A stretch of DNA of 39,310 nucleotides, taken from the IMG/VR virus record IMGVR_UViG_3300044630_002986, positions 1-39,310 of that record. One strand, 5' to 3'. Of the stretch, positions 3,583 to 38,321 are shown piece after piece. The first letter of the stretch is position 1, and the number at the start of each line of letters is the position of its first letter. Under the pieces are notes generated by a model that did no database searches, was not told the origin of the DNA, and saw only the letters and a program-made list of their open reading frames with translations. Source of the stretch: a virus. Its lineage: Duplodnaviria; Caudoviricetes. Position numbers and translations under genes: made by a program.

Positions 3583-6333
3583 TTAGAAATCTATCTTAAC
3601 CACAAATTGTTGAATACCTTGTCTTAACACCGGTGATTGTAGTTTTGACATAACCATAATATCTTTATTACTATCAAGTAATGCAATTTCTGTAATATAA
3701 GATTTTGTTCCTTGTGTCCAAGTTGGATTTGTTGTATTTTGGAACTCAGCCGAACTTAAATTAATCTTATATCTCATTTCATAAATTGTTGCCTGAATAT
3801 CAGATTCAAGAGAACCATAGAAATAATATTCATCACCAAAGTTTAATTTTGGTTGGGTTGTACCATTTGGTACAAGGTCAATATAATCATTTAAATTATA
3901 ATATGGCGCACTATCATATTGCTCTTTTGTAATTACAAATGTGGTTCCAGTTAAAGATTCTTGTGTTATATAACCATTAAGTTTTTGATTCTCAATTAAA
4001 TAAGTATAATCAATTATTTTCCATAAAGATGGGTTCGGTCTTTCTCCGGTTGTAACCTTTTGTGCTAAAACTTCAAATGTATCTGCAAAAAATCCTCTTG
4101 GTAATTCACAACTTACCGGACATATTGTTGTAGTAGTAGTTGTATATAAACTTCTAATTTTTTCAACAGAAGCAAAGTTTGAATTTTCAGTTGTAAATGG
4201 AATGTTCAATATCGCTTGATTACACCAAATTAAATTGTCACCATTATTTGTTGTTATTACATTTAAATCTTGAGTTAAAATATAACAAGTTTCAACAAAT
4301 GGTATTGTTGTTGTAGTTGTTGTAGTTGGTATTTCACCTTGTGTTAAACAATTAAATTCCGGACCAAATCTAACAGCAACATTTTGTGACACATTTGGAT
4401 TACAGTCATTGTTGTTTCCGACAATTTTTGAATAGTAATTTGAATGTAATGAATTTGTAAATGACATTGTGTTTGATAATCTATATGTTACATACATTGT
4501 TTCACTATTTCCGGTTAATATACCATCATTTGTTGTTCCAGGTATTCCACAAGTATTTGGTGTAATTAAAGAAACTTGAGGTGCGGTTAATGTCCAGTTT
4601 CTATTTGATTTATAAGACATTGCGGCAATAATTTCTTCATCATCAATTATTACTAATTTACTATCTGGGAATACTTTACCAACTCTACTTGGTAATCCAT
4701 TAGCATTTGGATTTGTATCCCAAAGATGATAATATCTAATACCAGGTTGATTCATACCTTCATTTTTGGTTGATTCCAAATAATGAACCTCAAATAAATT
4801 TTTACCATCAAATCCCGGAGGATCAACCCAGAAAGTTTGACCAAAACAACATTCAGGATTTTTATGCCACATAATCCAAGGAATATGTAACTTAAAGTTT
4901 CTTGCCTGACCAGTAGTATCATCAGGATTAGTTGGGTTATATGGTTCTAACGCAAATTTTTCACCATAGAAGAAATCAATTGTTTGATTTGTATAATGAA
5001 TAATTGCAATAGCTTTTTGTTCTTCCGGTGTTACTATAATTTTTTCATCAAATGAGTTATAATAATAAACAGAATCAGTATCTATTTGTCCCTTTTGTGA
5101 TGTATATCCAAAATATTCTTTTGTTCCAATATAATCTATAGAACCAAATTTTGTATAATCTTCATAGAATGTTGAGCTTAACCCGGCTGGAGATTCCGTC
5201 CAAGGAATATTCATATTCCATATTTTAACATCAAATTGATCTATATCGCAAATTGATTCAAAATTTATAACATCATCAGCCCAATGTGGTCTCGGTGTTA
5301 TACTATCATATATTGATGTCATATTTGGTGGATAGATTATTGTCCTTGCAATACAATTAAAATTTGTCAACATTGTAAAATCAGGGGTTACTCTGTCTAA
5401 AGTAATTTTGTCTTCACAAATAGCAACAATTCTATATGTTAGAATTGAATAACAAGAGTGTGTATCCATTAAACACACAGCTGGTGGTGGTGGTGGACAT
5501 GCTCTACTTGGTGTTGGTGTTACACAAGGTGTTCTTGTTGGTGTTGGTGTAGGTGTTGGTGATGCACAAGGATTATAGTTTTGTGTTAAACTTGGTGTTG
5601 GGGTTGGTGTTGGAGTTTGTGTTACAATTGGGGTAGACTCACAATCACTCCAAACTAAAAAGTCATCGTCTTCGGTTGTTATAAACTCATCAAGTTCAGT
5701 CATTATGATACATGTATCAATAATTGGGGTTGGACTTGGTGTTGGGGTTGGGGTTAATGGTGGTAGGTTTGAACATCCACAATTATAATTTCCACTACCA
5801 TCATAAAAAATAGTAATAAAATCACCAACTGATGGTGTGTTTTTATTTGTATAATCACATCCAACATTTGTAATTGTAATTTGATTTGAACCATTCAATG
5901 TTGACATATCAACAACATAATTTGCACTAACAGCATAAATATTACTTGTTAAAGCACTCCAACTTATAGTTGACGCAGTTGTATTACCGGTAAAAAACCC
6001 TCTTAATGGTGCTCTATTAAAAACTGGATCAATACCAGAATCCATATAAGGAATACCAAAAGTATTTCCTTCATTACCGTCAACATAATATGGATATTTT
6101 ACATTTTGTCTATTTGACTGTGGAACACCAGAAATATTTTGTGAATTAAATGGTGGTTCTAAAACAAAACTTTTTGCTTGATTATATGTTGAGGGTAATA
6201 CGTCATATGACACTTCACTATCACCTATTTGGAAATAACTTATATTAAAACTTCCTTGTGAAAGTTTCTGTCTTCCGGCGTCAGTGACTCTTGTATTTAC
6301 GAGTCCAGATGTATTTTTAAGTATATATGTCAT
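3583..6333 (-). CDS. Tail/baseplate fibre-attachment protein with DUF3751-like termini and Thr/Pro linkers
   Basis: N-terminal VTDAGRQKLSQG..ISYFQIGD and C-terminal YITEIALLDSNKDIMVMSKL resemble the two ends of phage tail-collar/fibre (DUF3751-like) domains. (TP)n and poly-Thr tracts lie inside. Confidence 0.6.
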   Translation of the reverse strand: MTYILKNTSGLVNTRVTDAGRQKLSQGSFNISYFQIGDSEVSYDVLPSTYNQAKSFVLEPPFNSQNISGVPQSNRQNVKYPYYVDGNEGNTFGIPYMDSGIDPVFNRAPLRGFFTGNTTASTISWSALTSNIYAVSANYVVDMSTLNGSNQITITNVGCDYTNKNTPSVGDFITIFYDGSGNYNCGCSNLPPLTPTPTPSPTPIIDTCIIMTELDEFITTEDDDFLVWSDCESTPIVTQTPTPTPTPSLTQNYNPCASPTPTPTPTRTPCVTPTPSRACPPPPPAVCLMDTHSCYSILTYRIVAICEDKITLDRVTPDFTMLTNFNCIARTIIYPPNMTSIYDSITPRPHWADDVINFESICDIDQFDVKIWNMNIPWTESPAGLSSTFYEDYTKFGSIDYIGTKEYFGYTSQKGQIDTDSVYYYNSFDEKIIVTPEEQKAIAIIHYTNQTIDFFYGEKFALEPYNPTNPDDTTGQARNFKLHIPWIMWHKNPECCFGQTFWVDPPGFDGKNLFEVHYLESTKNEGMNQPGIRYYHLWDTNPNANGLPSRVGKVFPDSKLVIIDDEEIIAAMSYKSNRNWTLTAPQVSLITPNTCGIPGTTNDGILTGNSETMYVTYRLSNTMSFTNSLHSNYYSKIVGNNNDCNPNVSQNVAVRFGPEFNCLTQGEIPTTTTTTTIPFVETCYILTQDLNVITTNNGDNLIWCNQAILNIPFTTENSNFASVEKIRSLYTTTTTTICPVSCELPRGFFADTFEVLAQKVTTGERPNPSLWKIIDYTYLIENQKLNGYITQESLTGTTFVITKEQYDSAPYYNLNDYIDLVPNGTTQPKLNFGDEYYFYGSLESDIQATIYEMRYKINLSSAEFQNTTNPTWTQGTKSYITEIALLDSNKDIMVMSKLQSPVLRQGIQQFVVKIDF

Positions 6334-6367: not shown

Positions 6368-7831
6368 TTATGGATTTATAAAAGGACCTGTTATTGATAG
6401 TGCGTTTGGTTGTGGTGGATTTACAAATACAAAATTACAACATTCACAACCATTTGAATTTCTTATATTTGTAATTAAGATTTGGAAAGTTTTATATGGT
6501 TCACCGTAACAAGTTGGTAGTGGTGGTGTTAATATTGATACATTATCTGTAAATGTTCCATTTAAAATATCACCGGATGTCATAGCTATACTTTGCCAAA
6601 CGGTTGTTGTTTGTGTTTTTAATCTTCCATAAACAGAACAAGGTCCAGTAATTGCAATATTTGTTGGGACAATACTTGGTGAACCGGTTGGTGGAACTAC
6701 TATTGAATTTTTATATAAAGTCAAGACATTATTATACGTTTGTGTTGAACTCGGTGGTTGTTTAATGAATGTACTTAAATGTTCTATATCAAAAGTTACT
6801 GTTGTTCCAATAGGGAGTGCTGGACTAATAGTGATATTAAATGTATTTGTTGGTGCATATTGTATATTTAATGTTAAAGTGTATGTTACTGGTGATGGCG
6901 ATGGTGCTAATGTTATTTGTTGACTACTTATTGTACCTACGGAATCTTTTATAAACGCAGAATAGTTACCACCACATAAATTTTGGAAAACTGGTGTTGA
7001 TTGGTATGTAACACCTCCATTTATTGAATATTGATAAGGTGGTGTTCCACCTTGTGCTGCAACCGTAATAGAACCATTACATTGACAAGTTGGGTCATTT
7101 TTATTTACATTTATTTGTAAAGAATTGGTATTAGTACAATTACCTTCAGTAAATAAAACACTATTTACAATTGTATTTGGTGTATTTACACCAACTAATT
7201 GCCAATTTGTTAATGGTAGTGGATCTCCAGTTGATGGATTTGTATATGAATTATTTGTTATATAACCACTTGTAAGTCCAGATACAATCCAAGAATTTAT
7301 TGTATCGGCACTCCAATAAATTAATAGATTTTGTGATGATGCTGACCAACTTGGATACCCATTGTAAAAACCAGAATATGTAAATTGTGTTAATGTGGTA
7401 TTAGTTGTTTGGAACCCATACTTTAAATTAGTGATATTAAGTGATAAACAATAATCACTATATACTTTTTGAGTTGTTGTTTCTGGAATTGTTGTAGTTG
7501 TCGTTGTAATTCCAGTTAAAACACAAGTTGTTGTTGCTGTAAAATCACCATAATAATCAACAACAGTTGCTGTATATTCTCCGGCACCAAGATTAAATTT
7601 TGCTGGTGCAACACTACCATCGTCCCACAATATTGTAAATGGTGGAGTTCCTCCAGTTATTCCAAGTCCAACAACACCATCATATGAATCTGAAAAAGTA
7701 GGTTGTATTGTAAAACAATTAACACCCATTGGGAATATAGTAATTGGGTCGCACTCATTTTTTGGCTGAATGGGTACATCCGGTCTTGGTTGTGATGTTG
7801 TTGTTGTGGTTGTTATACTATATAAACTCAT
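6368..7831 (-). CDS. SprB-repeat-containing virion protein with poly-Thr linkers
   Basis: SprB-like repeats GITGGTPPFTILWDDG..NLGAGEYTATVVD and NGSITVAAQGGTPPYQYSING..FQNLCGGNYSAFIKDS. TTTTTT runs are present. Confidence 0.7.
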   Translation of the reverse strand: MSLYSITTTTTTSQPRPDVPIQPKNECDPITIFPMGVNCFTIQPTFSDSYDGVVGLGITGGTPPFTILWDDGSVAPAKFNLGAGEYTATVVDYYGDFTATTTCVLTGITTTTTTIPETTTQKVYSDYCLSLNITNLKYGFQTTNTTLTQFTYSGFYNGYPSWSASSQNLLIYWSADTINSWIVSGLTSGYITNNSYTNPSTGDPLPLTNWQLVGVNTPNTIVNSVLFTEGNCTNTNSLQINVNKNDPTCQCNGSITVAAQGGTPPYQYSINGGVTYQSTPVFQNLCGGNYSAFIKDSVGTISSQQITLAPSPSPVTYTLTLNIQYAPTNTFNITISPALPIGTTVTFDIEHLSTFIKQPPSSTQTYNNVLTLYKNSIVVPPTGSPSIVPTNIAITGPCSVYGRLKTQTTTVWQSIAMTSGDILNGTFTDNVSILTPPLPTCYGEPYKTFQILITNIRNSNGCECCNFVFVNPPQPNALSITGPFINP

Positions 7832-7855
7832 TTTATTTATTTAATAAATAATCAT

Positions 7856-8833
7856 TTATTTGTTTTTTTCTATAAATGATTTCATAACATCTATATATTT
7901 TATTGTTGTACTACCTTTATCAACATAATCAAAATGATTTGGGTCTTCTTTTAATTTTTCTATTGGGTCAACATTTATGTAATCGCCTTTATAAAATTTT
8001 GTATTTTTAAGATTATCAGTTACTCCGGCCATATGTAAAATTGGGTTTTTATCATATATTACAACTGGATCTGTAGCCCAAGAAAAACTTAATTCATTTG
8101 TTATTTTTGTTTCAAAACCAAATAACCATAAGTTCCAAAGTAGTGCCCACATTTCAGCAGTCCAAAACTGTATTTGTCCAGGATTGATTGGAAATCTTTT
8201 TTGGTAATTCAACATTTGATTATATAGTGGTGTTGAGTCTTTATATATCTTATCCCAAAGTTCAAATGTCGTATTTTTTAATATATACTGGCCGCCTCCG
8301 GAATTTTCTTGATTGTTTTTTATTAAATTTATATCAATACCAACAACATCAGCCATTTCTTGTAATAGTTGTCCTTTTTGTGAATTTGTATGTTGTTGTT
8401 CATACCTATTACAACAATCAATAATGTATTTATATCCAATATAACTTTTTGTGTCTGATAAATAATTTATATCATCATCTAATAATATTTCAAAGTTTGG
8501 TAATCTTGAGAAGATTATGTCAGCATCGTGTAAGAAAAAACATTTTCCATATTCCGGATTATTTTCTAACCATTTTGAGATTAAATATGGTTTTATACTT
8601 GGGATATATGTTTTTTTATTTCTTAAATCTTCAAAAAAATGGACATTTATTCCATATTCTTTTAATTTTTCAGCATCTAATGATGGTTGTTTTTGTCCAT
8701 TACATAGGCCAAATATCACATGTATTTGATTTGGGTTAATCCCATTTTCAATAAAATTATGAACATATAGTTTAACTTGCCAATGAAAATATGAAACATC
8801 AGGTTGTGCCGTTACAAATATAATATCTTTCAT
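7856..8833 (-). CDS. GT-A glycosyltransferase resembling peptidyl-serine alpha-galactosyltransferase / hydroxyproline O-arabinosyltransferase (GT96/GT95-like)
   Basis: Ordered motifs YFHWQ, YIPSIKPYLISKWL, FFLHDADII (DxD) and WTAEMW match my recollection of plant SERGT1 motifs YFDWQ, YPAINKP..V..WL, VILDADMI and WISEMY. Confidence 0.7.
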   Translation of the reverse strand: MKDIIFVTAQPDVSYFHWQVKLYVHNFIENGINPNQIHVIFGLCNGQKQPSLDAEKLKEYGINVHFFEDLRNKKTYIPSIKPYLISKWLENNPEYGKCFFLHDADIIFSRLPNFEILLDDDINYLSDTKSYIGYKYIIDCCNRYEQQHTNSQKGQLLQEMADVVGIDINLIKNNQENSGGGQYILKNTTFELWDKIYKDSTPLYNQMLNYQKRFPINPGQIQFWTAEMWALLWNLWLFGFETKITNELSFSWATDPVVIYDKNPILHMAGVTDNLKNTKFYKGDYINVDPIEKLKEDPNHFDYVDKGSTTIKYIDVMKSFIEKNK

Positions 8834-8834
8834 A

Positions 8835-8867
8835 TTAAAAATATATGAAAGAATAAACTTTATTAAA
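8835..8867 (-). promoter_or_regulatory. Putative sigma70-like promoter TTTAAT-N16-TATATT directly upstream of the glycosyltransferase
   Basis: The coding strand reads TTTAAT aaagtttattctttca TATATTTTTAA t ATG. It shares CATATATTTTTAA with the resolvase leader. Confidence 0.4.
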
Positions 8868-8882
8868 TATTTTGTTTATTAA

Positions 8883-9110
8883 TTAAGAACAGACAATGAA
8901 TTCTTCGTAATCACAATTTACACAATTTGACAGTCTAATTAATACCGATGAGTAAGTTTCAAATATTGGTGGTAATTGAATTGTTATTGTTGGCGGTATT
9001 GAATTATTTATTGTTGCGATTAAAATACAATTATTCCCATAATAGTCACAACAATAAACATCAAAAGGTACTGTCATTCCTGTAACACCACTAAAACTAA
9101 TTTCTGTCAT
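8883..9110 (-). CDS. Small Cys-rich protein (single beta-sandwich-like module)
   Basis: 75 aa with 6 Cys. Starts 1 nt after the upstream stop and resembles the partial ORF at 2-142. Confidence 0.7.
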   Translation of the reverse strand: MTEISFSGVTGMTVPFDVYCCDYYGNNCILIATINNSIPPTITIQLPPIFETYSSVLIRLSNCVNCDYEEFIVCS

Positions 9111-9111
9111 A

Positions 9112-12100
9112 TTAAATAGGTCCTCCGTCAGTTATTGTCCAGTTATTAGGTCCTGTAGTTAACACACCTCTAGCCGTTGCCGCAGCACTTGGTGCTATTG
9201 AATATTGTGAATTACCGGCACTAAATATCACATTTGGTTGTACAGAAGGTAATGTTGCCCAACCAACTAAAAGTGCATTATAATTTGTTGTTGTTAATGT
9301 AACATTACTAAACATATTTGCCATACTTGTTACATTTGATATATCCCAAGAACCAAGGTTTTGTTCAAACTGTATTGCTTGATTAAACATACTTGACATA
9401 TTTGTAACATTTGAGACATCCCAAGAACTAATGTTTTGATTAAATAATTGAGCGTTATAGAACATACCTTGCATATTTGTAACAGAAGATGTATCCCAAG
9501 AACCAATTGGTTGATTAAAGTTAATACAACTAACAAATAATTGACCCATATTAGTAACAGATGATGTATTCCAATTATCAATTAATGGATTTCCACCATT
9601 ATTAAAGTTTTGACATGCGGCGAACATAGCACTAATATCAGTTGCACTTGACATATCCCAATTTGATAGATTACTATCAAATAAAACATCTTTTGTAAAC
9701 ATATTATTAAAATCTGTAACAGATGTTGTAACCCAAAGATTTGAATTATTAATTGTTGTTAGGTCTGAACAAGAACCAAATGTATTTCTTAACGTTAATT
9801 GACCGGTTAAGTCTGGTACGTCAACAACAGTATTTAAAGTTAAATTACCACAACCATTGAAGTGGCCACTGTAAGTATTGCCAAGTTTTAATTGACCCCA
9901 TTTTTCAACAGTTAATATATTTCTACTATATGCAGAATCAAAACTAAACGACCAACCATCAATAGTACCAAATATTTCAACGGTATATACACCAGGTGTT
10001 GCATATGTATGTAATTTTTGTGGACTATTCCAAGAATTAATTGTATTAAATGTTCCATCACCCCAATAAACAGTAAAATTATAATTCCCAGTATCAACTA
10101 ATGGTAATCTAATTTTAAACCCACTAAATGTTGTCCAAGTTGTAATAAATGATGGAATTACAGATGGTGTTGGAGTAACAGTAGGGGTAACCGTAGGAGT
10201 AACCGTAGGTGTAACTGTCATCGTAGGTGTAACCGTAGGTGTAACTGTCATCGTAGGTGTAATTGTAGGCGTAACGGTTGGTGTTGGTGTTGGTGGTAAA
10301 CCACAATAAACACAAGAAATATCATAATCAATTAAAAGATTTATTTTAACCTCAGCATCTGATAATGTATTAAAGTTTGTTGGTTTACAATTTTTATTAG
10401 TATCAGTACAATTATTTATAATTTTTACTGTATTTTTTTCTAAATCAAATTCTACACCGCCAACATCTGGATATTGTAAAAGTAAATCCTCCAAAACTAA
10501 TACCCATTCTTCGTCGGTTGGGTAGTCAGTTAGTCCAAAAGATGTATAAAATGTGGTTTCTTTAATAACACCATCAACAGAAACTTGTGCTGTAAATGTT
10601 GCACTATTTAATTCACAATTTGTATCATCAAATGTTAAATCATAATAACCCTCATTTAACATTTGTAACATACCTCGTCTACCAATAATACCGGTATTTT
10701 GGAAGTTTTGACTACAAATTGTAAAAGATTGTGAACCATAAATAAGTTCAGTTCCAGTTAGTGTTACTGTTTTTGTTAAAACACATCCTTGATTATCAAT
10801 TACTGTAAGTGTATATGTCCCAGCTGTTAAACCAGTTACATTTGGTGTTGTTTGTCCATTTACATTTGAACTCCAATTATATGTGAACGGTGGATTTCCA
10901 CTTGATATTAGTGTTTGAATTTCGCCATCATTACCATTAAATGTTGGTATTGTATATAAATCATAGTAAAGGTTCAATGAACTTGCTATTGTAAATCCAA
11001 CTGATTGTGTACAACCATTAATGTCGAAAACGGTTGCAATATAATTTCCTGGTGATAAATTAATAAATGTTGGTGTATTTTGTATTGGTTGACCGGTTAT
11101 TTGGTATGAATATGGTGTTGTACCACCGGTTGATGCCAATATTGTGACGCTTCCATTATTTAAACCACAACTTGTATCAGTTGTAACGGCTGTTATTGTA
11201 AATAAATCTGTATTTGATATTGTAATTGTTGTAGTATAAACACAAGGTGAACCATTAGATATTTCAAGTGTATAAGTATCAGATGGTAGTCCATTAAAAA
11301 CGGCAGTTGATAAGTTTGTAAAAGTCTGAACAAGATTACCTAAAGAATCTAATAAATTAAAAACAAACGAACCGCTTGGTGATCCAGCATTTACAGAAGC
11401 AGTTATTGTTCCATTATTATTTGAACAAGTAGAATTTGTTGATGTTATTGAGGCAATTGTAAATGCATTTGGGTTTAATAAAAGTATGGAACTAATGTCA
11501 GTACAAAGCCCAGCATCTTGGACAAAGACTGTTAATAATCCATGGCCTAAATTTGTAAATGTATATGATGGTGTAAATGTTACTAATGAGTCACCATTTG
11601 ACCCTGAAAAGAAGTATGGTCCAGTACCACCGGCCACATTGACAATTACTTGACCATCATTATTAAAACAAGTCGGTTGAGTAGGTATTATAGATGTGAT
11701 TGTTATACCTGGAATTGTATTAATTGTTGTCCCAAGTGATGTTGTACAACCATTACTATCAGTAACAGTAACAGTATAAGCATTACTTGTTAATCCGGTT
11801 ATAAAGTCTGTTGTTTCACCATTTGACCATAAATAAGTATATGGTGGAGTTCCAGTAATACCGGTAATATAAATTTTACCATTATTTACAACACCATTAC
11901 AACTATTATTATCAATAACGTAAAACCCAAAATTTAAAGGTGTTGATGAATATATTATACAACTTTCACTCCTACCAGTACAACCACCACCATCGTCACC
12001 AATGACATAATATGTATCAGCAGATAAACTTAATGGGAATGTAAATGTATTTGTAGAAGTTGTCGCACTTTCAATAAAATTATCATTAATATCGTAAAGA

Positions 12101-12471
12101 AATGCAGTACCTTGACCATAAAATGTGGTAAATGTAACATCAAGAGTTCCATTATCTAAACCACATGTTGTTCCTGTTGTATCAATTGACACACAAGTAC
12201 CTGATGAGATATTAATATCAATGTAGTTTATTGATGGTCCAGGAACCAAACAAAAATCTTCAACGGCTAGTGTATAATTACCAGCTGGTAAATTATCAAC
12301 AAAATAATTAAGTGTTGCCGCTGATGTTGGGAACAAACCACTTGTTGTAACTTCATAAACTGTATATGGTGGTGCCGTACTCCCGGTAAATTCAAGATAT
12401 ATCGCACCAAGTGAACTATTAGTACAGTCACCAGTTATTGATAAAGTATATTGTATTGTTCCACAACTCAT
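9112..12471 (-). CDS. Adhesin-like fibre: SprB repeats, (TP)n linker, PKD-like domain and DUF285/BspA-type repeats
   Basis: Multiple GTPPYTYLWSNG..GLT...YTVTVTDSNGC repeats, FTVYWGDG..HTYATPGVYTVEI, and tandem W(D/N)xSxVTNMxxMF..FNQxIxx repeats near the C-terminus. Confidence 0.8.
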   Translation of the reverse strand: MSCGTIQYTLSITGDCTNSSLGAIYLEFTGSTAPPYTVYEVTTSGLFPTSAATLNYFVDNLPAGNYTLAVEDFCLVPGPSINYIDINISSGTCVSIDTTGTTCGLDNGTLDVTFTTFYGQGTAFLYDINDNFIESATTSTNTFTFPLSLSADTYYVIGDDGGGCTGRSESCIIYSSTPLNFGFYVIDNNSCNGVVNNGKIYITGITGTPPYTYLWSNGETTDFITGLTSNAYTVTVTDSNGCTTSLGTTINTIPGITITSIIPTQPTCFNNDGQVIVNVAGGTGPYFFSGSNGDSLVTFTPSYTFTNLGHGLLTVFVQDAGLCTDISSILLLNPNAFTIASITSTNSTCSNNNGTITASVNAGSPSGSFVFNLLDSLGNLVQTFTNLSTAVFNGLPSDTYTLEISNGSPCVYTTTITISNTDLFTITAVTTDTSCGLNNGSVTILASTGGTTPYSYQITGQPIQNTPTFINLSPGNYIATVFDINGCTQSVGFTIASSLNLYYDLYTIPTFNGNDGEIQTLISSGNPPFTYNWSSNVNGQTTPNVTGLTAGTYTLTVIDNQGCVLTKTVTLTGTELIYGSQSFTICSQNFQNTGIIGRRGMLQMLNEGYYDLTFDDTNCELNSATFTAQVSVDGVIKETTFYTSFGLTDYPTDEEWVLVLEDLLLQYPDVGGVEFDLEKNTVKIINNCTDTNKNCKPTNFNTLSDAEVKINLLIDYDISCVYCGLPPTPTPTVTPTITPTMTVTPTVTPTMTVTPTVTPTVTPTVTPTPSVIPSFITTWTTFSGFKIRLPLVDTGNYNFTVYWGDGTFNTINSWNSPQKLHTYATPGVYTVEIFGTIDGWSFSFDSAYSRNILTVEKWGQLKLGNTYSGHFNGCGNLTLNTVVDVPDLTGQLTLRNTFGSCSDLTTINNSNLWVTTSVTDFNNMFTKDVLFDSNLSNWDMSSATDISAMFAACQNFNNGGNPLIDNWNTSSVTNMGQLFVSCINFNQPIGSWDTSSVTNMQGMFYNAQLFNQNISSWDVSNVTNMSSMFNQAIQFEQNLGSWDISNVTSMANMFSNVTLTTTNYNALLVGWATLPSVQPNVIFSAGNSQYSIAPSAAATARGVLTTGPNNWTITDGGPI
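10165..10297 (-). repeat. Coding tandem repeat encoding a (TPTV/TPTM)n linker, including an exact 30-nt duplication
   Basis: AACCGTAGGTGTAACTGTCATCGTAGGTGT occurs at both 10201-10230 and 10231-10260, flanked by degenerate 12-nt units. Confidence 0.9.
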
Positions 12472-32930: not shown

Positions 32931-33947
32931 TTACTTTTTTGGTTTGTTTCTAAAATTTGTTTTTTCTTTCCTTGATAGTTTTAAAAATGGTCTTAAAAAA
33001 TTTACCCAAGCGTCATCACCTTTTGGTAGAAATTTGAAGAACCCGTCCTCCATCATCATCCTAATTAAGTTTCTATGTCCTCTTCCGTCTGGATCCAATG
33101 ACTCCGAGTAATATAAACTAACCAGTTCTTTTCCTTCATCTGAAATAAGTGGGTTCGCAAGGTCCACCAATTTCTCATTTATGATAAAAAATTCTTCTCC
33201 AAAAATCCCTTCTTTGGTTTTTCCACTAAGTAGATTTTGTAAGGCAACATTTCCTTTTTGTTCTGTTAATAACTGTTCAGCCTTTGTTAAAATATCGGTA
33301 TATTTAACCTCACTTTCAAGTATTTCTGGAAATAATTTAAGAAATGTTTTTTCACCCAAATAAAAAATACCATCAATATTATCCGAACTATCACCGGTTA
33401 ATATTTTATAGGTTTTAACATTATAATGGGGGATTTCAGATGAGTCCATCTTAATTCCATCCCCCAATTTATAATATCTCTTATGTTGTGGTGAGTATAT
33501 AGAGACCCTATCAGAAATAAGTTGTGTTAAATCACGGTCAGAAGAAAAAATGGTCTTATCTTCATCCTGGGATATTTGACAATAGTAAGCAACCAAATCA
33601 TCGGCCTCTGATTGTTCAACTTCTAATTGTCTTACAAACATTTCTTCAAGGTATTGTTTTACCCTTTCTTTTTGTTTTAAAAAAGATTGTTCTTTAAAAT
33701 CTTCGTCGTCTTTTTGTTTACGATTTAATTTGTATTTTGGGTATATAATTCTTCTTTGTGATGAGCCGGTTTCACTATCCCAAAACACAACAACTTTATT
33801 GTAATTATTTTCTTCTAAAAATCTTCTTAGAGTGTTTAAAAAATGCCAAGTACCACCAACGTGTTCACCTTTGTTAAAAAAGTCTCTAACACCGTGGAAA
33901 CCGATTTTTAGAAGGTTATTACCATCTACCAATAAAGTTTTAGTCAT
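32931..33947 (-). CDS. 5'-3' exonuclease / flap endonuclease (T4 RNase H / PolI N-terminal-like)
   Basis: LLVDGNNL, VFWD, RRIIYPKYKLNR, EADDL, SSDRDLTQL and LTGDSSDNIDGI..LGEKT. Confidence 0.92.
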   Translation of the reverse strand: MTKTLLVDGNNLLKIGFHGVRDFFNKGEHVGGTWHFLNTLRRFLEENNYNKVVVFWDSETGSSQRRIIYPKYKLNRKQKDDEDFKEQSFLKQKERVKQYLEEMFVRQLEVEQSEADDLVAYYCQISQDEDKTIFSSDRDLTQLISDRVSIYSPQHKRYYKLGDGIKMDSSEIPHYNVKTYKILTGDSSDNIDGIFYLGEKTFLKLFPEILESEVKYTDILTKAEQLLTEQKGNVALQNLLSGKTKEGIFGEEFFIINEKLVDLANPLISDEGKELVSLYYSESLDPDGRGHRNLIRMMMEDGFFKFLPKGDDAWVNFLRPFLKLSRKEKTNFRNKPKK

Positions 33948-34962
33948 TTAATTCTTCGTTTGATTGGTTTGACAATACTGGTTCTTCTTCTACAATGTAA
34001 TCATTAAGGAACTCACTAAATATTGCCTCCATTACTGGAACACATATTGAATTTCCAGCAAGTGATACGTGTCCTTTTGTTGATAGTGATGTTGTTAATA
34101 ATAAATCAATATCTTCATCACGAACACCCATAAATCTATACCCTTCTCTTGCTGTAATATTTCTTACTCTACCGTCTTCGGTCATAATTTGTGGGGATCC
34201 ACTTGTTGTAAGACAAGGTGAACAACCATCAATAGAATAAATCCTTCTTGATTGATCATAACTTATATCATCTCGTCTTGCAATCAATCTACATACCGTA
34301 TTTCCTTTTGGTTGGTGTATTGTATATGGACAATCAATAAACAATTCTGGGTCCTGTGTATCCTCAATAAACGGTCTCATTGGTATTCTTGTTTTTTTGT
34401 GGTTGTCAACGTTTTCCATTCTTTGTTTTACATCTTCTCTTTCACCATCTAAAACTGAAATCATAAATACTCTTTCTCTGTTTTGTGGACAACCGAAGTC
34501 AGCACCATTAAGTAATCTCCAGTATGACGTATAACCAAGACCTCTTAAAAAATAGATATGTTTTTTAAAATTTTCATAATGATTTTTTGAGATTAGATTT
34601 TTAACATTTTCCATTAACAAATACTTTGGTCTATTTGTTGACAAAATTCTTTCAACATCAAATAGCAATCCACTTCTAGTTCCTTCTTTAATTCCTCTTT
34701 GGACTCCGGAAATTGAAATGTCCTGACAAGGGAATGAATATGTTAATAAATCACATTGTGGGAAATTATTGTGGTCAATTTTTGTTATGTCCCCCAAATT
34801 ACCCATTTGTGATTGATGTAAAACATCATAACACTCATTTGCTTGTTTGAAGTTGTCACAATTTGCAACATTTTCATAATTAACCCCAACATATTTCAAT
34901 GCTAGTTCTTGTGTTCCGTATCCGGAAAATAATGAAATAACTTTTAATTTATTCTTGTTCAT
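33940..34962 (-). CDS. DNA (cytosine-5)-methyltransferase
   Basis: Motif I LFSGYG, motif IV SFPCQDIS, motif VI LMENV, motif VIII QNRERVF and motif X AGNSI. Confidence 0.93.
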   Translation of the reverse strand: MNKNKLKVISLFSGYGTQELALKYVGVNYENVANCDNFKQANECYDVLHQSQMGNLGDITKIDHNNFPQCDLLTYSFPCQDISISGVQRGIKEGTRSGLLFDVERILSTNRPKYLLMENVKNLISKNHYENFKKHIYFLRGLGYTSYWRLLNGADFGCPQNRERVFMISVLDGEREDVKQRMENVDNHKKTRIPMRPFIEDTQDPELFIDCPYTIHQPKGNTVCRLIARRDDISYDQSRRIYSIDGCSPCLTTSGSPQIMTEDGRVRNITAREGYRFMGVRDEDIDLLLTTSLSTKGHVSLAGNSICVPVMEAIFSEFLNDYIVEEEPVLSNQSNEELND

Positions 34963-35959
34963 ATACCTTTTCTTCTTTTAAATCAAATTCACCATCAACT
35001 CCGATAATTGTTTTCCAATATTCTGCATATTCACTTTTGTAATTCTCAATTGATTTCTTTTCTTCTGTTGCATCTTTTCCAGGTAAAAACCCATGTGGTG
35101 TTACAATAATCTTACCATCTTCAAAACCAAGTCCATTTATGTGGTTTTTCATAACAGATACTTTTGTTCTTGAAGCAAACTTAACAGTTCTTTTGTCTTT
35201 TGTTGCTGTAATTTTTGTTGTACCGGCACCTTTTTGGTTTCCAAATAAAAATACTAAAGATGAATTTAACCAAATTGCTTCACCACCTTTTGCTTTAATT
35301 TTTGGTTGACCAAATGGATTATCTGGTAATTCAACCCAAGGTTGGTTTACAATAATTAAAGTGTTTTCATATTTTGAATCTGCTTTTCTTGATCCGGATA
35401 TTCTTTGATTGATTCCCATACCAATTTTGTCGGCTAATACACTCGCATTGTGTTGTTTACCACCTTTACCCTCATAAGTCATTTTACACGGAACTGAACC
35501 AACTGAATCCCACATAATACATAGTGAATAGTCTAACTCACCCTTTTCTTGTGCGTCTAATAATTCATTTATATATTCTGTAATTTGTTCTATATAACTA
35601 AAATTATTATTAAATAAGAAGAACCCGTCCCAACCTAACTCACCAGTTTCTTCATCAACAACTTCTTCACATTCAAAACCCATCAATCTTGCGTGGTCAA
35701 ACGACCATTTTTGTTCTGTAATAATGAACACAGGAAGAATTTCTTTCTTTTGTGCGTCAACAGCAGTTTTTACAAGTGCTGTTGTTTTTCCAGTGTCCGA
35801 GTGTCCTAAAAACATATTTATATGTCCCATAGCAGGTCCTGGAAGACCAACCGCGTCAAGGAATGACTCACCTAAATCAAAATACCTTTGTGGTTTGTAT
35901 TTTGCATCAGATGAGAATTTTTTCTTAATTGAACTAAAATCTTTTTTCTTAATTGCCAT
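34949..35959 (-). CDS. RecA/UvsX-like recombinase
   Basis: GHSDTGKTT (Walker A), IMWDSVG, IIVNQ, KAKGGEAI and VMKNHI. Confidence 0.88.
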   Translation of the reverse strand: MAIKKKDFSSIKKKFSSDAKYKPQRYFDLGESFLDAVGLPGPAMGHINMFLGHSDTGKTTALVKTAVDAQKKEILPVFIITEQKWSFDHARLMGFECEEVVDEETGELGWDGFFLFNNNFSYIEQITEYINELLDAQEKGELDYSLCIMWDSVGSVPCKMTYEGKGGKQHNASVLADKIGMGINQRISGSRKADSKYENTLIIVNQPWVELPDNPFGQPKIKAKGGEAIWLNSSLVFLFGNQKGAGTTKITATKDKRTVKFASRTKVSVMKNHINGLGFEDGKIIVTPHGFLPGKDATEEKKSIENYKSEYAEYWKTIIGVDGEFDLKEEKVYEQE

Positions 35960-35963
35960 ATTT

Positions 35964-36623
35964 TTAATTTTTTATTAAAAAGTCAGAAGTTGATGTGTTC
36001 TTACCGTGAATGTACCAAATCATATTTTCAGTATTATCAACTTCTGCTATTTTACATTTATTACACCAACTATCTCTCCACATATTATCTTCAAAACCAT
36101 AAATTGAAGTAATGTCTTTTATTAAGTTCAGTGCTTTAAGGTTAAAGGCAAATGTTGCCGGTATTTTAAAATCACACCCTTCTGGATTTGCTCCCAAATT
36201 ATGATAATTACCTCTTCTTAATAAATTTCCATTTAATTGATATTTGATTCTTGATGATAAAACATCAACATCATTATTATCAAAATAATCAACTATTGTC
36301 TTGATATAATCTTTTTTGTAAATGTCATCATCATCAATCTTCACAAAAATATCATATGTTTCATAATCTTCAACAGCAAATATAGCTTTCATATGATTTG
36401 TGTGTTGATGGTTATTTACTGAAAATATAAATGAATTTTTTTCAGTTTTCAAGTCATGAATTAAAACATTAACATTATTAATATTAAAATTTCGTTGATC
36501 AAGTGTAACGTTAATACTATGGAATATGTTCTCATAACTTTGGGTTGCAATATCTTGGATACAACCCCTTAACATTTTAAACCTATTGTAACTTGGTGTA
36601 AAACACAATACTTTCTTGTTCAT
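35964..36623 (-). CDS. GT2-family (GT-A) glycosyltransferase
   Basis: N-terminal FTPSYNRFKML..QSY, FVKIDDDDIY (DxD), GFEDNMW and C-terminal YIHGKNTS. Confidence 0.8.
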   Translation of the reverse strand: MNKKVLCFTPSYNRFKMLRGCIQDIATQSYENIFHSINVTLDQRNFNINNVNVLIHDLKTEKNSFIFSVNNHQHTNHMKAIFAVEDYETYDIFVKIDDDDIYKKDYIKTIVDYFDNNDVDVLSSRIKYQLNGNLLRRGNYHNLGANPEGCDFKIPATFAFNLKALNLIKDITSIYGFEDNMWRDSWCNKCKIAEVDNTENMIWYIHGKNTSTSDFLIKN

Positions 36624-37658: not shown

Positions 37659-38321
37659 TTATTTGTTAAAATTTTCATCATCACTCCAATCATTAAAAGT
37701 GTCTTCAATTTCATTTGGTGAATAATCTTCAACATCATCAGTTGTTAAGACATATTCATTTTTGCCACTTTTTTCCATTTCTTCTTGTTTATCAGCAAAG
37801 AAATCTGATAATTTTTGTTTAAATGGTCCTGAATCTAAACTTCTCAATTCTAATTTTTCTTGAGCGGTTTTTGGTCTAAACTTATCAAATTTTTGTTCCA
37901 AAGAATTTAATGATGAAACAATATTATCCATTTCTTTCAGTTTGTCTTCCAAACCTTTAATCTGATTGAAAAGATTTTCAAAGTACTCTTCTTGTTTTGT
38001 TTCAATATTTTTTTGAGAATTAACTAAATCTGTAATATCTAATTCTTCAGTTTCATCACCCTCTTTACCAACTTCTTCAACATCTGGGTCAGTCGCTGGA
38101 TCTACCGGAGCCGGACCACCTGCCGCAGCATCTGGAGCCGGGCCACCTGCTGGTGGAGCACCACCCGGAGGAGGAGGAACATCACCACCCGGAGGAGGAG
38201 GAACATCACCACCCGGAGGAGGAACATCACCTGGTGGTGGGGGAACTTCTTGTTCATTTAAATATTTATTGATACTTTTGTATCTATAAATTTCTTCTAG
38301 TATTTTTTTTTCAACACTCAT
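37659..38321 (-). CDS. Acidic, Pro-rich coiled-coil protein (possible prohead core/scaffold or internal head protein)
   Basis: DVPPPPGG repeats, an acidic linker and a heptad-like segment (YFENLFNQIKGLEDKLKEMDNIVSSLNSLEQKF). Function is inferred. Confidence 0.55.
   Translation of the reverse strand: MSVEKKILEEIYRYKSINKYLNEQEVPPPPGDVPPPGGDVPPPPGGDVPPPPGGAPPAGGPAPDAAAGGPAPVDPATDPDVEEVGKEGDETEELDITDLVNSQKNIETKQEEYFENLFNQIKGLEDKLKEMDNIVSSLNSLEQKFDKFRPKTAQEKLELRSLDSGPFKQKLSDFFADKQEEMEKSGKNEYVLTTDDVEDYSPNEIEDTFNDWSDDENFNK
38161..38229 (-). repeat. GC-rich coding tandem repeat (24, 24 and 21 nt) encoding DVPPP(P)GG
   Basis: CCACCCGGAGGAGGAGGAACATCA at 38161-38184 and 38185-38208, with a one-codon-shorter copy at 38209-38229. 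Confidence 0.9.

Follow-up and report, generated by a model that had tools for sequence, protein, structure and literature searches.

Phage-encoded glycosylation of virion proteins is known from the mycobacteriophages, in which capsid and tail tube are modified and the particles are shielded from antibodies, as stated in the available portions of PMC12363180 and PMC12619734. The systems cited in these portions are Che8 gp108-110, Corndog gp38, and Myrna (Freeman et al. 2023). In plants, HPAT (GT95) and SGT1/SERGT1 (GT96) are initiating enzymes, the HPATs are Golgi type II membrane proteins, and GT95 and GT96 are called related in the accessible sections of a review (PMC8012813). The pairing described here, of a phage glycosyltransferase (GT) with runs of Thr, was not found in the accessible parts of the open-access PMC and bioRxiv literature, including PMC6821194, PMC6669764, PMC6563214, and PMC10799837.

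The DNA analysed here, which we call the window, is a 39.3-kb piece (39,310 nucleotides, 13% complete) of a low-GC phage with a contractile tail, whose near-complete relatives measure 257-318 kb. Its genes include baseplate gp25 and gp6-like genes, a class II ribonucleotide reductase, DnaB, RecA/UvsX, a gp32-like SSB, and RuvC. The stretch is present in 20 runs from 17 studies, with 16 of the runs labelled lake water and no RNA dataset among the listed runs that hold the region. SprB repeats, together with the best cultured match to the 325-aa protein discussed below, which is Chryseobacterium phage MA9V-3 at 39% identity (tblastn, GenBank phage records), suggest Bacteroidota as the host phylum. 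The features of the central gene are as follows.

7856-8833, minus strand: 325-aa soluble glycosyltransferase of predicted GT-A fold, PHROG 4417, a remote HPAT/PF23452 relative by sequence alignment
8519-8527, minus strand: DxD motif, D103-A-D105, predicted metal and nucleotide-sugar site (D103 in 74/75 and D105 in 75/75 alignment rows)
8147-8164, minus strand: family motif W-T/C-A-D/E-M-W, aa 224-229, which aligns with WESDM of the bacterial PF23452 family
8033-8035, minus strand: His267, invariant in 75/75 rows of the family alignment

The reading frame is intact, and the motifs from which the original prediction had named a DxD glycosyltransferase were all located: YFHWQ at aa 15-19, YIPSIKP..ISKWL at aa 76-89, LHDADII at aa 101-107, and WTAEMW at aa 224-229. 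By GT-A precedent, we take His267 to be the likely third metal ligand. No transmembrane stretch is present (maximum 19-residue hydropathy 0.82), and the domain begins at residue 5. The protein matches the profile of PHROG 4417, a family of unknown function, over its full length (E 4.5e-70, positions 3-290/293). This family includes Lactococcus bIL285 Orf45, 1706 Orf14, and LP65 Orf49, and from the available part of PMC12619734 it could be one of the four core glycosyltransferase groups of the moraphages. It is a large family, with 1292 members in the 90% collection and 848 clusters when grouped at 50% identity, and it occurs in 77/50,697 GenBank phage records. Searches of Pfam (to E 10), NCBIfam, and PDB sequences with the 325-aa protein gave no match, and the family profile reached PDB entries at best with E 0.16 and 0.66.

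The AlphaFold model, built from a 75-row alignment, has a pLDDT of 96.9, and in it a GT-A Rossmann-like fold covers the whole domain, in agreement with the proposed identity. Foldseek placed UGGT (GT24) and glycogenin (GT8) first (E about 4e-7 to 2e-6), while VIA-align gave glycogenin a Z of 15.0 (rmsd 3.6, 230 aligned), followed by Skp1 alpha-galactosyltransferase at 14.2, UGGT at 13.9, LgtC at 13.7, WbbM at 13.6, and GlyE at 13.4. From this model the protein is confidently predicted to be a GT-A-fold glycosyltransferase nearest the GT8/GT24 group. The likeness to glycogenin, Gat1, UGGT, LgtC, WbbM, and GlyE is that of best solved structural matches (Z 13-15), but identities are 7-12%, TM-scores lie near 0.45, there is no sequence-level match, and the acceptors of these enzymes are mixed. 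The fold leaves the acceptor undecided, since enzymes acting on proteins and on lipopolysaccharide (LgtC, WbbM) fall within about 1.5 Z of the top.

The order of motifs had been likened to that of plant HPAT and SERGT1, and this likeness holds up as a remote superfamily kinship, known through bacterial PF23452 relatives. The 325-aa protein itself has no PF23452 match (the curated cut-off of 23.9 bits is not reached), a direct PF23452 search of the window yielded no candidate, and 3/75 family members reach the profile weakly (best E 0.046). A PF23452 search of four genomes holding family members recovered one separate bacterial gene above the cut-off, and 44/44 rows of the family of this gene match PF23452. 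When the phage family (75 rows) was aligned with this bacterial family by hhalign, the probability was 94.9% (E 4.4e-8, 267 columns) and the WQ, DxD, W..D/EM, IxH, and F/Y-K motifs were in register, which makes the plant-type resemblance real at the superfamily level. In the ESM Atlas the top ten named matches all belong to the HPAT family or clan, one cluster being 88% PF23452 and 56% eukaryotic. No plant or algal protein was among the best 120 of 233 matches in a search with the bacterial PF23452 alignment, and no HPAT or SERGT1 structure was among the matches of the fold searches. As judged from these alignments, the 325-aa protein is a remote HPAT relative that shares superfamily-level ancestry with the plant enzymes via the bacterial PF23452 family.

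The likeness to plant HPAT and SGT1 thus consists of remote full-length homology and common motifs, and would extend to function if the phage protein is, as we propose, an initiating peptide O-glycosyltransferase acting on repetitive hydroxy-amino-acid tracts. By analogy it may work like such an enzyme, but it is not an HPAT member by cut-off, anchor, or acceptor. Plant HPATs are membrane-anchored (type II), whereas the phage enzyme is soluble and below the Pfam cut-off; the plant HPAT acceptor is hydroxyproline, whereas the trait linked to the phage gene is poly-Thr and no prolyl hydroxylase was found in five near-complete relatives. UDP-arabinofuranose is unlikely as its donor. With the mycobacteriophage systems the likeness is that a phage GT is proposed to act on exposed C-termini of capsid and tail-tube proteins, in our case from genetic linkage alone. 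There is usually one GT here rather than a cluster, the acceptor would be a dedicated Thr run that comes and goes with the gene, and the hosts are Bacillota and probably Bacteroidota, unlike those of mycobacteriophages. Comparison by hhalign with single-sequence templates of Che8 gp108, gp109, gp110, and Corndog gp38, among which gp110 and gp38 are essential GTs, gave E 0.13-0.72, with no detectable relation, and no Mycobacterium phage is among the 77-78 tblastn matches of the 325-aa protein.

The four large proteins nearest the GT had been said to carry Thr-Pro or poly-Thr tracts, and all of them do.

112-2877 (142-2877 in the original prediction), plus strand, opposite to the GT: 921-aa protein in which three (TP)n tracts occur but no run of 5 Thr
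3583-6333, minus strand: putative tail-module protein of 916 aa, conserved in the lineage, with one run of seven Thr, one of six, and three (TP)n tracts
4306-4326, minus strand: run of seven Thr, aa 670-676 of the 916-aa protein
4126-4143, minus strand: run of six Thr, aa 731-736 of the 916-aa protein
5536-5754, minus strand: the three (Thr-Pro)n tracts of the 916-aa protein, retained in GT-less relatives too
6368-7831, minus strand: 487-aa SprB-repeat protein with two runs of six Thr, directly downstream of the GT, predicted acceptor
7796-7813, minus strand: run of six Thr, aa 7-12 of the 487-aa protein
7490-7507, minus strand: run of six Thr, aa 109-114 of the 487-aa protein
9112-12471, minus strand: 1119-aa protein with SprB and DUF285/PARCEL repeats, upstream of the GT, with a Thr/Pro linker at about aa 727-769 and no run of 5 Thr

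The window therefore holds two types of tract: seven are of the (TP)n kind, and the other type consists of runs of 6-7 Thr, four in all, of which 3583-6333 and 6368-7831 contribute two apiece. In a chance test on the 25 window ORFs of 120 or more aa, the expected number of runs of 6 or more Thr was 0.03 against 4 observed, that of TP tracts was 0.015 against 7, and none of 2000 within-protein shuffles reached either count. In some relatives with the GT, the slot homologous to the 921-aa protein bears Thr runs. Contigs from two further lake metagenomes are identical across the GT and the first part of its poly-Thr neighbour (X2 7535-8953, X4 7310-8858), so this gene order is no assembly artefact.

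The surrounding genes had been described as a block of mucin-like fibre genes. Three of the four tract genes do share a strand, in a series that lies downstream of the baseplate genes (gp25 and gp6-like), and this neighbourhood and the SprB and DUF285/PARCEL repeats are in keeping with such a block. None of the four has a fibre family match, though, and 112-2877 lies on the other strand beyond a RuvC gene. The term mucin-like is too strong for Thr runs of 6-7 residues, and we regard the Thr-run proteins of the window as putative virion components. A GT-bearing relative has a 455-aa protein with 20 runs of 5 or more Thr, a true mucin-like tail (L388:2486-3853).

The relation between gene and tracts in the window's own lineage was followed with the gene of the 916-aa protein as anchor, which gave 80 loci, 64 with the GT; once truncated anchors, GT-less loci with less than 9 kb upstream, and duplicates were dropped, 54 rows including the window remained. 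The anchor bears a run of at least five Thr in 44/46 GT-bearing rows versus 0/8 GT-less rows, and for the whole locus the counts are 45/46 versus 0/8. One exception, L335, has an intact GT, no run of five Thr in 20 kb, and a (TP)n neighbour; in another, L331, the anchor has four Thr in a row only. The GT family is absent from three GT-less records that are 96-100% complete, in searches that detected the positive controls. A six-Thr codon pattern has 2, 0, and 2 genome-wide overlapping matches in these three records versus 5-14 in seven GT-bearing ones; the reversed pattern was left unused as a control because it is not neutral, matching ACA/CCA repeats too. Two GT-less genomes, G001 and G003, each retain one run of seven Thr in a small Ala/Thr-rich protein. 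In the jumbo relatives the tail sheath (PHROG 23) lies tens of kb from the GT, and a loop of it carries at least five Thr in a row in 5/7 GT-bearing versus 0/5 GT-less genomes, the sixth GT-bearing genome having a Thr/Ser run and the seventh (G016) a (TP)n tract at this place. The same loop has (TP)n in GT-less G002 and an 80-160-aa insert instead in four GT-less genomes (L389 versus L379, L387, and L396-L398).

The original prediction held that the main acceptors are (Thr-Pro)n or hydroxyproline linkers, in the manner of plant extensins. HPAT kinship would fit this, (TP)n tracts do occur in 45/46 GT-bearing jumbo loci, and in two loci, L335 and L127, the GT adjoins TP-rich genes. The tracts are just as regular without the enzyme, however, being present in the anchor of 44/46 GT-bearing and 7/8 GT-less rows and in 8/8 GT-less loci as a whole. 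Phylogenetically independent pairs, taken from trees built on a core free of tract columns, gave the same picture: for the three own-lineage pairs, 2.8 on average agree for Thr runs, while for (TP)n 0.4 go the same way, 0.2 the opposite way, and 2.5 show no difference. Many siphophage tags are moreover Pro-free, and PF13640 genes, the one Pfam family in which prolyl 4-hydroxylases were sought among the phage genes of five genomes, were found in 0/5 near-complete relatives, two of them GT-bearing. We consider such linkers very unlikely as the main acceptors. (TP)n was rejected as the linked trait on its persistence in GT-less relatives, and the hydroxyproline route on the lack of a PF13640 gene in the 5 genomes and on the Pro-poor nature of the tags that co-vary with the GT. 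The (Thr-Pro)n tracts are probably independent spacers, which could be modified too when the enzyme is present. Of the nucleotide-sugar enzymes, a further expectation, NDP-sugar epimerases (PF01370) do not track the GT either, being present in 1/2 GT-bearing and 2/3 GT-less genomes.

The expectation that the GT co-occurs with Thr-rich virion genes was confirmed far more widely than had been supposed. Six cultured phages were picked from the tblastn list as different lineages, and in 6/6 the GT lies just downstream of Thr-run genes that encode capsid, decoration, or tail-tube proteins. Five others were also inspected: bIL285 and 1706 have tails of the nine-Thr type, 9183 has a weak tail, and LP65 and 521B have other Thr repeats. 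Orf51 of LP65, which is Thr-tailed, is annotated as found in virions, while from the virion proteome table of 521B, in the accessible part of PMC6563214, the GT and the Thr-repeat proteins 174/175 are all missing. Of 80 GTDB loci, the 65 with at least 3 kb upstream were counted, and a gene with five or more Thr in a row lies within 8 kb in 38/43 stand-alone homologues (5/43 have none nearby) versus 2/22 longer fused ones.

Paired controls were anchored on structural genes instead of the GT. The Bacillaceae-type major tail (tube) protein has a Thr tail in 8/8 loci with the GT versus 0/27 without (all 35 loci, some GT-less ones with short flanks). The corresponding counts in distinct rows are 4/4 versus 0/21 for the bIL285-type tail protein (80 loci reduced to 25 rows, 7 short-flank loci dropped) and 8/8 versus 0/13 for the phiFL-type tail protein (27 loci reduced to 21 rows, 2 dropped). 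In Lactobacillus, phages iLp84 and R9.1 have the GT and Thr tails on capsid and tail tube, whereas iLp1308, CL1, and R26.9 have neither, though their capsids are 96-98% identical to those of GT-bearing phages; JNU_P10 has no capsid tail, and its locus stops just past the capsid gene. Two prophages retain Thr tails though the GT is in pieces. Most often the tags take the form of short C-terminal tails (major capsid and tail-tube proteins) or of a loop in the tail sheath, and they are not confined to fibre stalks; those of siphophages are mostly Pro-free Thr runs. Lactococcal tags on capsid and tail proteins have a common short acidic/His motif after the Thr run (L369, L370). The repeat of LP65 (L371:5058-7101) is of the T-T-T-E-T-Q type and that of 521B (L373:4709-6957) of the T-T-V-A/K-P type, and both phages have divergent enzymes; these different repeats suggest that changes in the tag go hand in hand with changes in the enzyme.

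In five groups of related phages, the GT is thus present almost exactly where capsid or tail proteins bear Thr runs. The independent pairs on the trees number 3, 3, 1, and 2, which with the Lactobacillus contrast makes about ten, none of them in the opposite direction. No single family is significant alone; when the families are combined by hand, all of the 9 or 10 contrasts agree, for a two-sided sign-test p of 0.004 to 0.002. Such an association could also arise if the enzyme's target were phage DNA or glycans of the host surface, with the Thr tails hitch-hiking on the same recombined cassette. LgtC, which acts on lipo-oligosaccharide, and WbbM, which acts on O-antigen, are among the top fold matches, and many siphophages have the tail directly upstream of the GT, where one crossover could move both. 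Against this, tags occur on several non-adjacent genes, at positions -6, -5, and -1 relative to the GT in Bacillaceae prophages, on the tail tube five genes downstream in bIL285, and on the jumbo sheath, and the protein is soluble and encoded inside structural gene blocks. Hitch-hiking on one cassette fails as an explanation for tags that are as many as six positions, or tens of kb, away from the GT, and a host glycan or DNA target appears highly improbable to us.

Our main reading is that the 325-aa enzyme O-glycosylates Thr runs on virion proteins using a host nucleotide sugar, to which we give a probability of roughly 80%. The enzyme would be made alongside the late structural genes and act in the cytoplasm late in infection; its ligands would be a divalent metal and a nucleotide sugar common in the host, such as UDP-glucose, UDP-galactose, or UDP-GlcNAc. 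That the donor would be a common host sugar follows from small siphophages carrying the GT alone. A monosaccharide would be added to Thr hydroxyls in exposed flexible runs on the capsid, tail, and putative fibre proteins that the phage itself encodes. GT8/GT24 enzymes are retaining, and likeness to them suggests an alpha linkage. With hundreds of capsid, tube, or sheath copies, siphophages would acquire a dense sugar coat; in the window phage the tags would be on putative tail-module proteins, and in relatives on the sheath. This mechanism would need no prolyl hydroxylase. The glycan may shield or extend exposed tails and loops, and as a guess the benefit would be shielding from proteases or antibodies, solubility, or adhesion.

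Two other readings accept the Thr runs as the enzyme's partners but differ on what it does to them. In one, the runs receive a group that is not a simple sugar (for example sugar-phosphate or phosphocholine), or the enzyme only extends a primer laid down by another. GT-A folds do include phosphotransferases (GNPTAB Z 9.7; CpsY Z 9.7, with a weak profile match at E 0.66), and Gat1, UGGT, LARGE1, and GlyE, all among the top fold matches, are chain-extending enzymes. But sugar transferases score 4-5 Z units above the phosphotransferases, and small siphophages carry gene and tags without a second GT annotated alongside. HPAT and SGT1, moreover, initiate chains according to the available sections of PMC8012813, and we think this reading quite unlikely. 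In the other, the protein would be non-catalytic and bind Thr runs as a part of the virion or as a chaperone. Its position within structural operons would fit this, yet the DxD, His267, and the WxxD/EMW motif are near-invariant, and the annotations of 1706 and LP65 name its neighbours as structural but not the protein itself. It is also absent from the 521B virion proteome table of PMC6563214, and a non-catalytic role seems scarcely credible.

Glycosylation of the Thr runs by the enzyme may be part of a wider scheme, for which we rate the odds at slightly better than even. This is a portable two-part "glycotag" system, a cytoplasmic enzyme of the HPAT/SERGT superfamily with a short poly-Thr tag that can be placed on any capsid, tail-tube, sheath, or fibre protein. 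Siphoviruses, herelleviruses, and jumbo phages of two bacterial phyla would repeatedly have acquired and lost it, the tag co-evolving with the enzyme, and the superfamily would glycosylate bacterial ribosomal peptides and be the prokaryotic root of plant wall-protein O-glycosylation.

The bacterial homologues offer context for the main reading. In a few loci, chromosomal Bacteroidota homologues adjoin peptide-modification genes, and in the bacterial PF23452 family 16/44 rows have a fused PqqD domain (PF05402), which we take to be a peptide-recognition module. Such neighbours and fusions suggest that members throughout the superfamily act on peptides. An additional glycosyltransferase domain (GT60, O-fucosyltransferase, GT6, GT7, GT29, GT2, or GT25) was found in 14/75 long homologues scanned, which fits an initiating enzyme with extenders. 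The homologues at L198, L189, L203:8001-10123, and L186 are mostly fused to a second domain and lie in or beside ribosomal-peptide clusters. L198:2293-10873 is a grasp-with-SPASM cluster, L198 and L189:8007-10723 have weak lanthionine-synthetase-like neighbours, and in L186 a peptidase ABC exporter is near the homologue. The ribosomal peptides of these Bacteroidota clusters are candidate glycosylated peptides. The PqqD-fused subfamily (P0329-P0399) is named only "PqqD family protein" by its sources. A cluster of an Acidimicrobiales genome (L190/L363, G013) contains a PF23452-positive gene, a fused family member, and GT60-like, oxygenase-like, and NDP-sugar epimerase genes, some labelled by eye, and looks like a bacterial peptide-glycosylation locus. 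In a phage-like locus (L168:8001-9952, P0167) a radical SAM/SPASM domain comes after the homologue or is fused to it.

If the enzyme acts as proposed, it would represent a second route of virion glycosylation, unrelated to that of the mycobacteriophages and spread over dairy, gut, staphylococcal, and freshwater phages. PHROG 4417 would gain a proposed function, the poly-Thr tails on capsid and tail proteins would be explained, and the target of the enzyme could be read from sequence as poly-Thr. Long-studied dairy phages (1706 and the IL1403 prophage bIL285) would, if the glycotag reading is true, be unrecognised glycoviruses. Near-isogenic cultured pairs such as iLp84 and iLp1308 make the ecological role directly testable, and a single soluble enzyme paired with a tag of six residues would offer a simple means of O-glycosylation in bacteria. 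The phage enzymes would also be tied to the ancestry of plant GT95/GT96.

Among the replication genes of the window, a C5 cytosine methyltransferase and a 219-aa GT2-like glycosyltransferase flank RecA (33940-36623, minus strand), possibly a DNA-modification pair separate from the virion GT. A 220-aa protein without a family match (37659-38321, minus strand) has a repeated Pro-rich motif, D-V-P-P-P-P-G-G, and a coiled-coil-like tail. Genes of 404-410 aa, read by eye, occur near the GT.
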